Below, piece after piece: positions 56,500 through 59,056 of a stretch of 64,000 bases of DNA (positions within the stretch are counted from its first letter, which is position 1; every line of letters begins with the position of its first letter). This stretch comes from Leptospiraceae bacterium (GTDB taxonomy: Bacteria; Spirochaetota; Leptospiria; Leptospirales; Leptonemataceae), in the NCBI GenBank assembly GCA_040217195.1, contig JAVJNR010000006.1, positions 32,001-96,000 of the forward strand. Direction: 5' to 3'. Under the pieces are notes generated by a model, which saw only the letters and a list, made by a program, of their open reading frames with translations, was not told the DNA's origin and did no database searches. Position numbers and translations under genes: made by a program.

Positions 56500-56845
56500 G
56501 GGGACGAAAAGGTTTCGACTGCTGTGATTTCGAGATCCAGGTCGCATGCGGAGTTGAGGAGCTTCTTAAAACCTCACCTTATAAGTGCTAACAACGAACA
56601 CGCACTGGCTGCATAATTAATGTGGTCACGCTCCCTGTAGTTTCCCTTCCGGGGCTACAGACGAGTGTCAATTTACGGAAGGTCTGCTAACTTGGTTCGG
56701 ATAGCGATTTAGCAGGAACATACTATTCGAAACGTCAGGTTGTGGTTTGTTGCTGCACCGATGCCTGCCGTAACGAGCAGCGACTAAGCATGTAGTGGCC
56801 TGTTTTTCGCGCCGTAGGACGCGGGTTCGACTCCCGCCGTCTCCA
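56500..56845 (+). ncRNA. ssrA: tmRNA
   Basis: 5' GGGGACG..GGTTTCGAC; 3' T-arm GCGGG-TTCGACT-CCCGC then CGTCTCCA; acceptor stem with the G3.U alanine determinant; internal tag ORF. Confidence 0.96.
56587..56616 (+). other. tmRNA proteolysis tag ANNEHALAA*
   Basis: GCT AAC AAC GAA CAC GCA CTG GCT GCA TAA, ending in the canonical ALAA. Confidence 0.9.
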
Positions 56846-57316
56846 CACTTGCAGGATAAATCTGCCATTGATAACGGCGTCCGTCGCGCTCCGCGAACGA
56901 CTCCCGCCGTCTCCAATTCGCTGCGCTCATTTGTTGGGCCGCCGCCAGGTCGTCGACCACTCCGTGGGCGACTCCCGCCGTCTCCACAGCGCAAGTGGGG
57001 GTAGTCGAGCGGCGAAGGCCGCGCCTCCTTGCACGGACTCCGCCGCGCTCGCCCGTCCTGGGCTCGCGTTTCGACCACCCCCACTTGCGGGGGGCCTCGG
57101 GGATGTGGACCTTTATTTGCATTCCCTTTATGGATCTGGTCAAACTGATAGCGAGCAAAGATCCCACTGTTTTGGTAAGGACTAGCCTGATAAAACTAGA
57201 CGTTAAACCCGTATCGAGCCACACCCAGGGATGGGTGTAGCCCTGGCTCGGTACAGGGATGTGCCGTGCCAGGGCCGAGATGCGGGTTCAACGTCCGGCG
57301 ACTCCCGCCGTCTCCA
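56828..57316 (+). repeat. Four exact copies of the tmRNA 3' 18-mer CGACTCCCGCCGTCTCCA
   Basis: Copies start at 56828 (the tmRNA itself), 56898, 56969 and 57299. Confidence 0.95.
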
Positions 57317-57610
57317 CAGCGCAAGTGGGGGTAGCCGAGCGGCGAAGGCCGCGCCTCCGTGGACGGACTCCCACACGCTCGTGCTTCCTGCACTCGCCTT
57401 TCGATCTATCCCATCTGCTGGTGTTAATAGCCTCCCTTCTTGTCTAATGATGGCCTGGGTTCGACCGAGCACGGAATAAGACCGTACCTGCTTCGAGCAA
57501 GTTTGTCATTCCAAACATGGACGTTGAACCTGTATCGAGCCGCTCCCACGGATGGGAGCAGTCTGTGCTCGGAACAGGGAGGTGCCGCGCGCAGACCGAG
57601 AGGGGCGGGT
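56967..57610. repeat. Two tandem ~315-330 bp structured cassettes with conserved palindromic ends and unrelated cores
   Basis: 56967-57089 matches 57297-57419, and 57199-57280 matches 57520-57601; intervening cores show no visible similarity. Confidence 0.9.
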
Positions 57611-57778
57611 AGGCCCAGTAACAGCATCGAAGGATATCCGCAACTTGCCAACTATTGTGTCCAAAATGCCTTGACAGTAACTTTGAATCCACCTCTTTTC
57701 ATGGGAACCATTCGAGCATCAAATAGTGTTGCGTGCAGTTCTACGCGATCCCATGCAATGCATCGAGGTACTCCATCC

Positions 57779-59056
57779 ATGAACGACATTCAGAAAGAGG
57801 GTATTGAGAAGCAGTTCCGCCAGGAGCTGCTGCGAAAGCTTACTCTTGGTGTCCGTCTGGGGTCAATGCTGATAGTCTTTGCCTTCTTTAGTTTTGCATT
57901 TATTGACAGAGTTTTTGATCCGGCCTACCCGGAACTACTGATGCGAATCCGAATTATACTGGTTTCCCTGGGTATTACGATTTTTCTGCTGAGCTTTGTC
58001 CCGTTATTTCGCAACTACTTGCCCATGCGCTTATTGAGTTTCGTTCTGGTTCTTATATCCGGCGGAGGTGTGGCCGTATTGACGGAGCTTACCGGTGGCT
58101 CCGTTAGTCCCTACTGGGCCATGATTATTGTTACGTTCTTCGGTGCCACATTGCTCTTGAATTTCTCTGTGGCCGGTTCGTTCACAGTCTATCTGCTGGT
58201 GTTCATTTTCTACGATGCCTTGCTAATCTACTCCGGAGAAAAGATAGGGACTATAAGTTTTGTAAGTAGCAATGCAGGTATCCTTCTGTCCATTGTTGTG
58301 AGTGTTACTGGTAGTGGCTATCTGCGCATACTCATGCACAGGGATTTCGAATCGAGGCATAGTCTGAATCGTGCATACGACGAGCTGAGTGGGCTGCACG
58401 AGGAACTCAGGGATGAAAAGGAACAGAGCGAAAGACTTTTGCTCAATGTATTACCCGAGCAAATAGCGGCGAGACTACGATCCAGGCAGGAGATCATTGC
58501 CGATCGATTTGACGAGGTGACTATTTTGTTTGCCGATATTGTGGGATTCACCACCTACTCCGACGGAAAGCCACCCGATGAAATCATTATAGTTCTGAAC
58601 CAGATATTCTCTATCTTTGACGAATTGACTGAAGTGCACAACCTGGAAAAGATCAAGACCGTGGGCGATGCTTACATGGTCGTGGGAGGACTTCCGGAGC
58701 CGAGCACGGACCATGCGCAATCGGTGGCATTGATGGCCCTTGAAATGCTTGCTCAGATACGGGATTTTAACTCTCGCAGCAGATCAGACTTCCATCTTCG
58801 TATTGGTATTAACTCCGGTGAGGCGGTGGCCGGAGTCATTGGAAATAAGAAATTCATATACGATATCTGGGGCGACTCTGTGAATATTGCCAGCCGCATG
58901 GAATCCACCGGCATTCCAGATCGAATACAGATCACAGAATCTACCCGTGCCAGACTGGATCATGATTTCTTGATCGAAGAACGCGGCATTGTGGAAGTGA
59001 AAGGTAAAAGACCCATGCGCACATTTTTCTTAAATGCGCCGCGAATACCCGCCTGA
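57779..59056 (+). CDS. Membrane-bound class III adenylate cyclase
   Basis: About six TM helices; SERLLLNVLP, ILFADIVGFT, EKIKTVGDAYM (Lys) and YDIWGDSVNIASRMES (Asp) give the ATP-type signature; GAGG RBS before ATG 57779; TTGACA at 57671. Confidence 0.9.
   Translation: MNDIQKEGIEKQFRQELLRKLTLGVRLGSMLIVFAFFSFAFIDRVFDPAYPELLMRIRIILVSLGITIFLLSFVPLFRNYLPMRLLSFVLVLISGGGVAVLTELTGGSVSPYWAMIIVTFFGATLLLNFSVAGSFTVYLLVFIFYDALLIYSGEKIGTISFVSSNAGILLSIVVSVTGSGYLRILMHRDFESRHSLNRAYDELSGLHEELRDEKEQSERLLLNVLPEQIAARLRSRQEIIADRFDEVTILFADIVGFTTYSDGKPPDEIIIVLNQIFSIFDELTEVHNLEKIKTVGDAYMVVGGLPEPSTDHAQSVALMALEMLAQIRDFNSRSRSDFHLRIGINSGEAVAGVIGNKKFIYDIWGDSVNIASRMESTGIPDRIQITESTRARLDHDFLIEERGIVEVKGKRPMRTFFLNAPRIPA

Follow-up and report, generated by a model that had tools for sequence, protein, structure and literature searches.

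Structure-conserved Y elements bounding tandem cassettes at gene 3' ends in Leptospiraceae and other bacteria

A tandem array behind the tmRNA gene

The window analysed here is a stretch of 64,000 nucleotides from a Leptospiraceae bacterium, in which the tmRNA gene is followed by a tandem array of short units (Table 1). An 18-mer at the 3' end of the gene occurs in four exact copies, starting at 56828, 56898, 56969 and 57299; a 17-mer motif of the tmRNA end is likewise present at four places in the whole 4.6-Mb genome, all of them within the window. These target copies bound two mini-units of 70-71 nt and then two cassettes of about 300-330 nt, each laid out as a hairpin of about 100 nt that forms a three-way junction (the "Y"), a core of about 100 nt, and a second Y in inverted orientation. 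The original prediction had proposed units that start with the tmRNA 18-mer; this scheme is confirmed and can be refined, as two mini-units without a Y precede the first cassette. All of the stems and hairpins that it quoted are present at the positions given.

Table 1. Features of the array, in window coordinates.
Feature	Position	Strand	Description
tmRNA gene	56500..56846	+	tag ANNEHALAA; 18-mer from T-loop to 3' end (56828-56845) is the target
Mini-unit 0	56846..56915	+	70 nt; small hairpins, without Y; ends in target copy 2 (56898-56915)
Mini-unit 1	56916..56986	+	71 nt, without Y; ends in target copy 3 (56969-56986)
Cassette A left Y	56990..57089	- (GGA-loop form)	19-bp outer stem
Cassette A left Y loops	hairpin-1 57025-57030; hairpin-2 57055-57059		
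Core A	57090..57198	.	109 nt; unstructured
Cassette A right Y	57199..57295	+ (GGA loops)	inverted copy of left design
Target copy 4	57299..57316	+	closes cassette A; 330-nt spacing
Cassette B left Y	57320..57419	-	chimera; crossover at or near hairpin-1 loop (~57355-57361)
Core B	57420..57520	.	101 nt
Cassette B right Y	57521..57618	+	inner hairpins intact, their changes being compensatory; foreign sequence in the outer 3' arm

Mini-unit 0 has a 91% match in one relative's locus (L005), and mini-unit 1 is kept at 92-99% in four of the five genus relatives that have the tmRNA locus (L002, L003, L004, L005), being missing only from L006. Read on the minus strand, the hairpins of the two mini-units (56870-56960) show GNA triloops, a form typical of signals in single-stranded DNA. 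The gene 3' of the array (57779-59056) encodes a membrane adenylate/guanylate cyclase; among genus relatives the downstream neighbour varies and an upstream gene of 584 aa is conserved.

Folded as single-stranded DNA and compared with 200 shuffles, left A gives z-scores of -3.9 (plus strand) and -4.7 (minus strand), right A -7.1 and right B -2.5, and the two cores +0.5 and +0.3. The left and right elements had been read as a single design in opposite orientations, and this is borne out since one covariance model (R2) matches the left Ys of both cassettes on the plus strand (A 93 bits, B 70 bits) and their right Ys on the minus strand (A 48.5 bits, B 44.7 bits). These scores are partly by construction, all four Ys being training rows of R2; an earlier model from left-type Ys alone (R1) already matched both right elements weakly (24.5-25.5 bits). 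The 3' arm of right A holds 8 nt identical to the 5' strand of the tmRNA T-arm, and no tmRNA target copy follows right B.

The outer stems of cassette B had been described as more decayed. Left B indeed folds no better than shuffles (z -0.9, not significant), but its state reflects recombination into a chimera and not mere decay: its initial 39 nt match left A at 38 of 39 positions, and over 47 nt its 3' part has a 91% match to one half of another Y, located in the tmRNA array of a relative. Right B is a chimera as well, with a 3' arm of foreign origin. Automated scanning for chimeras brought up one case in 143 Ys and missed left B because its donors are partial.

Structure of the Y element

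Across 49 Ys, 89.5% of cells in the two hairpins (11 pairs) are paired, against 57.7% after shuffling, and double-sided changes number 177 against 63, with relatedness uncorrected. None of 500 shuffles equals the observed pairing, a comparison that ignores kinship, and slid controls reach 23-40%. Mean column identity is 54%; paired columns vary, and the invariant positions are the loops and their closing pairs. Conservation of structure over sequence, as the original prediction held, is thus what the alignment gives.

On one strand, the hairpin-1 loop reads C-ANGGAN-G in all 47 matched Ys, and the hairpin-2 loop reads C-AGGAN-G in 39 and C-ACGAN-G in the other 8. The loops fit the CsrA/RsmE consensus, for which excerpts from PMC4005645 give ANGGAX on a stem as the high-affinity site. 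G-T pairs make up 2.3% of Y stem pairs and 7.7% in the tRNA stems of the same genome (p 1e-7), an imperfect control, and G-A-type mismatches favour the GGA strand by 51 to 3; G-T pairs carry no strand bias in two tests (p 0.10 and p 0.88). Because G-T pairs are few and the G-A mismatches lie on the GGA strand, we read the Y as a DNA fold on that strand, and DNA would be its working form. The low wobble content also speaks against the earlier suggestion of an array processed into structured RNAs, which we disfavour. Contigs from one RNA run (X11) cover the tmRNA alone, although contigs do not show that other transcripts are absent. A better minimum free energy of the GGA strand under RNA parameters (57 of 62) was set aside as confounded by G-richness.

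In several Ys (L031:1543-1698, L036:11430, L051:3772, L032, G000:C1:3578) the hairpin-2 loop motif is immediately preceded by a recurrent insert of ~60 nt, which contains a terminator-like hairpin and is conserved at its right end. This insert may be a second miniature element that targets Ys.

Distribution

A search of the bacterium's own genome (G000) with R1 yielded 13 matches at E<=1, and ten of these belong to the training rows. Three tRNA genes of this genome are also followed by Ys, namely tRNA-Ser(gga), tRNA-Val(gac) and tRNA-Met(cat) (five Ys; vapBC in one unit), as is a cNMP-binding gene; at the last locus (L033, G000:C4 ~598250-598450) the Y pair is followed by five tandem repeats of ~48 nt. 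Arrays at the tmRNA locus occur in all five genus relatives that have it, and their number, order and cores differ, a variation between relatives that supports the original prediction.

More widely, Ys were found in 19 of 42 family genomes (R1) and, with R2, in at least 36 of 41 genomes of a sister-family genus (g22, which we take to be Leptospira) and at least 6 of 151 in a phylum sample. Two samples drawn around gammaproteobacterial genomes gave at least 7 of 151 and at least 11 of 75, respectively; the R2 counts are lower bounds because only 26-97 candidates were scored per genome. A strict pattern found 73 stretches among GTDB representatives, in Leptospirales-type MAGs, Moorella/Neomoorella/Peptococcaceae, Chromatiales and Arenimonas. 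At least five of these were dropped as chance matches, being coding and without a Y fold (L113, L117, L120, L128, L145), as were, on the same grounds, 9 of the 18 metagenome pattern loci inspected (of 53). Viral contigs gave no match to the strict pattern; BLAST returned one chance match among plasmids and none among phages.

The arrangement differs between lineages. One genome (G042) holds 66 dispersed, intergenic copies, and in the Moorella group and Gammaproteobacteria Ys stand at the tips of longer hairpins that are dispersed among housekeeping genes and occur in both orientations. The dispersal is REP-like, as had been suggested; no RAYT was found in the Y-rich genomes tested.

Several other arrangements were seen in the course of these searches. 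In Gammaproteobacteria (L238-L256) the Y lies within a composite repeat of 250-300 nt that has a conserved A/T-rich hairpin. A Y subfamily near the groES/ompA region of four genus genomes (L038, L046, L055, L069) adjoins motifs that we take to be DnaA-box-like. Behind tRNA-Asp and tRNA-Ser stands another repeat of several hairpins, which is distinct from the Y but shares its CANGGANG loops (L034:~360-420, L035, L052, G000:C1:~3370); at tRNA-Asp the array carries a 20-nt target copy of its own.

Polarity and target copies at gene 3' ends

The analysis of position covered 187 distinct Y sites. In the range -6..45 nt behind a tRNA or tmRNA gene there are 27 of them, and in the same range behind an ORF stop 31, always with the TCC strand as sense. 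The polarity is thus 58:0, with no reversed case; many of these sites are orthologous, which lowers the number of independent events, and at least one of the ORFs counted is spurious. The preference for tRNA and tmRNA 3' ends anticipated from the window is real (27:0) but too narrow, for the Y is also found directly after stop codons (31:0).

At stop codons the spacing can be exact: in the g22 loci L283-L302, 9 of 30 Ys begin 0-1 nt past the stop, where the null is 0.26% per site. Three of 24 orthologous fusA loci have a Y right after the native stop, different in sequence each time, and the other 21 are empty, with the C-terminus unchanged. The stop-codon targets share no sequence beyond the stop codon itself, which would be hard for a classical recombinase.

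At tRNA and tmRNA genes the target copies left behind measure 14-20 nt, and the duplicated blocks begin inside the T-loop (tmRNA, tRNA-His, -Ser and -Asp), most commonly at TT|CGA. In g22, 18 of 20 elements also contain the T-arm of their own target as an inverted copy of 9-15 nt (the mean for shuffles is 6.2); this copy tracks the T-loop variant of the tmRNA; in the window's own family such a copy is not above chance (6.6 vs 6.3).

Cargo and turnover of units

That the cassettes carry variable cargo is confirmed in relatives, where the genes between units encode VapBC, GAF/cyclase proteins of 1961-2143 aa, an FN3 protein and lipoproteins. Larger blocks include one of 8.3 kb between units, closed by a tRNA-His copy, and one of 13 kb flanked by direct Ys. 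Ys also end RHS/CDI-type toxin-immunity modules, the 5'-truncated ones on the GGA strand. Arrays of CDI/colicin-D-like toxin-immunity orphan modules were seen in G043 (L070-L073), each module bounded by a Y inside a repeated coding segment.

Cores of the tmRNA arrays measure 81-109 nt. They had been called unrelated, which holds for most, but some pairs in relatives are 77-90% alike. Core A of the window matches nothing elsewhere in the genome or the fetched loci, and weakly resembles the cores of two relatives (21 pairs compared; p 0.003-0.007 without correction). As CRISPR-like spacers the cores were rejected, matching only other cores in the genome and loci searched.

Unit number appears to change by whole units: a metagenome contig (run X1) joins 57082 to 57416 and skips 333 nt, exactly one unit fewer, on the evidence of a single contig with 42 nt on its short side.

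Search for a mobilising enzyme

The element had been predicted to be non-autonomous, and in agreement no mobilising gene was found in the cassettes examined. None emerged from the wider searches either: neither 250 neighbouring ORFs compared with Pfam nor 630 clustered ORFs within 900 nt of Ys at 275 loci gave an enzyme family common to different taxa.

Several individual candidates were rejected. The prediction of a RAYT/HUH or GIY-YIG enzyme as neighbour or companion did not hold in the searches made: GIY-YIG matches in G356, G359, G378 and G058 are only UvrC-sized, and a small GIY-YIG gene of genus g1 does not adjoin a Y. XerC and XerD are housekeeping proteins, and the one Y after an xerD-like stop codon sits there as after any gene. 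The PF13495 profile is uninformative, matching 35 of 36 genomes; a cargo family of 273-342 aa is a lipoprotein-like protein and not an enzyme; and IS481/IS3-like, IS1595 and T5orf172 genes near single Ys, like a short recombinase 280 nt from a Y (L398), are not recurrent. Separately, the 3-Mb genome G042 has 17 GIY-YIG-like loci, with about 15 related ORFs of 200-500 aa (L338-L343 and others), and no Y at the seven loci checked.

The 20 fetched loci with a tRNA-His array, which represent one clade chosen for having it, all encode an IntI-like tyrosine recombinase at a distance of 2-11 kb from the array. The recombinase scores 183-194 bits with TIGR02249, below the IntI cut-off of 265, and is a sedentary, syntenic neighbour of nadB. 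In G000 the gene has its own attC-like array; a scan found no attC-like site between recombinase and tRNA-His in any of the 20 loci, and no IntI-like gene lies near the window's own array. The gene was not found in eight Y-positive genomes and is present in genomes without a Y match. We regard it as a weak candidate mobiliser, for array-forming lineages only. The G000 locus (G000:C6:1-4023, L394; also L395, L397) consists of the IntI-like recombinase followed by gene cassettes with branched attC-like sites of ~220 nt, and is probably a sedentary integron of the order, separate from the Y system.

Interpretation and alternatives

The reading that we favour, with roughly even confidence, takes the units as non-autonomous cassettes of DNA. 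Their folded Y ends would be recognised in trans, and the cassettes would recombine into gene 3' ends. The proposal starts from observed features—the conserved fold, loop consensus, polarity, duplication boundary, filled and empty sites, variation in unit number, chimeras and cargo—to which we add, by inference, DNA as the working form, a circular intermediate and the type of enzyme. The Y would be the cassette's recognition end, folding as single-stranded or extruded DNA on the strand that displays the C-ANGGAN-G and C-A(G/C)GAN-G loops and the G-A mismatches. Joining of the cassette to the 3' end of a gene would fall to an enzyme provided in trans, for which a site-specific recombinase that works on folded DNA is the most plausible type; at tRNA and tmRNA genes the crossover core would run from the T-loop to the 3' end, so that each integration may leave an intact gene and a 14-20-nt copy, and repetition a tandem array. 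Cassette A could then be excised as a circle of ~330 nt, its core flanked by two inverted Ys, and recombination between Ys or between target copies would add, remove and shuffle units and produce chimeric Ys. The window would hold near-empty cassettes with cores of ~100 nt, and relatives the gene-bearing ones. Several results count against this reading: no recurrent mobilising gene emerged from the ORFs scanned, circles were not observed, the window's family has no inverted target copy above chance, the stop-codon targets have no common sequence, the automated scan gave a single chimera in 143 Ys, and the loops agree with a consensus for RNA binding.

An unlikely alternative is that these are REPIN- or TIR-like elements mobilised by a transposase of the HUH type (Y1/Y2), and that this enzyme is rare, has been lost or has diverged too far for Pfam to recognise. 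The loops would then be nicking or binding sites, and the arrays would arise from repeated insertion and strand transfer. The dispersed, high-copy intergenic Ys of G042, the Moorella group and Gammaproteobacteria would suit such a mechanism, as would half-elements broken off at the hairpin-1 loop, insertions into the hairpin-2 loop, and doublets inverted around a spacer in REPIN fashion; REP families without a cognate transposase are known, according to excerpts from PMC3733652. Against it, the RAYT/Y1 domain (PF01797) is found in none of five genus genomes and in none of G042, G043 and G058 (G356, G359 and G378 lay outside this search), and the five Y1 loci of G059 and G060 have no Y within 1.5 kb. 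The Y is ~100 nt in size and has no unpaired GTAG or CGTC tag. HUH insertion, furthermore, normally proceeds without target duplication, and target copies of 14-20 nt are present here.

Copying through RNA we consider quite unlikely: the GGA strand would be an RNA bound by a CsrA-like protein, with the 3' end of a tRNA, a tmRNA or an mRNA cleaved at its stop codon priming or accepting reverse transcription and the cDNA recombining in. Priming by an RNA end would explain the strict polarity and the zero spacing at unrelated gene ends, where Ys abut stop codons and CCA ends exactly. The CsrA/RsmE-type loops (ANGGAN in 47/47, AGGAN in 39/47; consensus from excerpts of PMC4005645), the presence of csrA in 5/5 Y-positive genomes and 3/14 controls, and the 5'-truncated RHS/CDI modules ended by Ys on the GGA strand all point the same way. 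However, the reverse transcriptase domain PF00078 is missing from G000 and G058, and the enzymes of G005, G359 and G378 have no Y within 1.5 kb; G-U content is low, 8 of 47 hairpin-2 loops read ACGAN, and at gene ends the GGA strand is antisense.

It is improbable, in our judgement, that the Y is a domesticated RNA element—a terminator, 3' stabiliser or CsrA sponge—selected at gene ends, whose copying needs nothing beyond homologous recombination or gene conversion and no enzyme of its own. Its presence in at least 36/41 g22 genomes, in many of them at the same tRNA-His site, and the T-rich tails after many Ys would agree with such a role, and a CsrA-like ncRNA has been predicted in L. biflexa (excerpts from PMC4863578). 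Against it, the Y is patchily distributed and has expanded in lineage-specific bursts, some orthologous sites are empty, each lineage has new targets, cargo turns over and targets are duplicated. An assembly artefact or chance palindromes can be largely dismissed as hardly credible, for although no read set spans the whole array, homologous arrays occur in five independent genus genomes and in another genus (L023), folding and covariation are significant, and independent contigs cover parts of the array.

A bolder reading can be put forward tentatively, and we hold it to be rather doubtful: a cross-phylum gene-cassette system not described before. In it a single Y end, defined by its structure and bearing CsrA-type loops, would be recognised by some machinery, perhaps encoded by the host, for which the 3' end of a gene as such (the CCA end of a tRNA or tmRNA, or a stop codon) is the signal. 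In some lineages a target-complementary segment within the element would retarget it, and toxin-antitoxin, RHS/CDI and signalling genes would be captured. Such a system, if real, would shuffle genes much as an integron does, with its targeting guided by nucleic acid or primed by RNA ends. The 58:0 polarity after gene ends including stop codons, together with the T-loop-tracking segments, poses a concrete mechanistic question, one that is testable in g22, a genus with many high-quality genomes and probably cultured members. A possible use is harmless, site-specific gene insertion.

Comparison with known systems

Rfam holds no match to the Y at gathering score, only chance matches at E<=10, and the literature searched contains no description of it (subscription papers, the cMITE catalogue and the L. 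biflexa ncRNA table lay outside this comparison).

REP/REPIN/BIME-RAYT and TIR/TIRYT elements, as described in excerpts from PMC3733652 and PMC6006769, are similar in being non-coding palindromes that form inverted doublets around a spacer; they too are intergenic, often near gene ends, non-autonomous and multi-copy, with lineage bursts. A REP is defined there (PMC3733652) as a short palindrome of 20-40 bp with an unpaired GTAG or CGTC tag. The Y, in contrast, is a three-way junction of ~100 nt with two fixed loop motifs, and the CGTC of the right element is paired within a stem and leaves no unpaired tag. It also differs in its strict polarity at tRNA ends and stop codons, its target duplications and its gene cargo, and the Y-rich genomes tested have no Y1 transposase, just as no Y lies beside the five Y1 loci. 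REPs near stop codons were reportedly described by Liang in 2015.

Integron cassettes and their attC sites share several properties with the Y system: folded DNA sites at a cassette end that are conserved in structure and variable in sequence, tandem arrays, toxin-antitoxin cargo and a strand asymmetry of mismatches. Y ends lack the RYYYAAC...GTTRRRY box order, and Y arrays are anchored on tRNA, tmRNA and CDS ends at many loci per genome, with two inverted sites per cassette, whereas an integron has its attI beside intI. The sites of the genome's own attC-like array (C6) differ as well, and R2 does not match it.

Islands formed by tyrosine integrases build tandem arrays at tRNA and tmRNA 3' ends and keep the target gene intact; tRNA sublocations for such integration are said to have been set out by Williams in 2002. 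The Y system resembles them in the intact gene, the 14-20-nt 3' duplication from the T-loop, tandem accretion and cargo of up to 8-13 kb. Unlike these islands, it has no integrase inside any Y cassette examined, its units can be as small as 70-330 nt, one structured end is common to different targets and phyla, and stop codons are targeted too.

Leptospirales are rich in cMITEs according to excerpts from a census (PMC11602168), and MITEs resemble Y cassettes in being small, non-autonomous and intergenic with inverted ends; Y ends, however, are conserved as structure and not as sequence TIRs, and the duplication is a 14-20-nt gene 3' end and not a short TSD. With the Csr/Rsm sRNAs (CsrB, RsmZ) the Y shares ANGGAN and AGGAN loops on stems (excerpts from PMC4005645), but it has two loops per unit, occurs at many loci, lies antisense at gene ends and is low in G-U pairs.

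The Y element thus blends traits of REPINs, integron cassettes and tRNA islands and lacks a defining trait of each: the tag and, in the Y-rich genomes tested, a RAYT; the attC boxes; and, in the cassettes examined, an internal integrase. It provides a searchable, structure-conserved mobile end that current annotation misses, and the same end links tRNA/tmRNA island arrays, REP-like dispersal and the shuffling of polymorphic-toxin cassettes—subjects that are usually treated apart.
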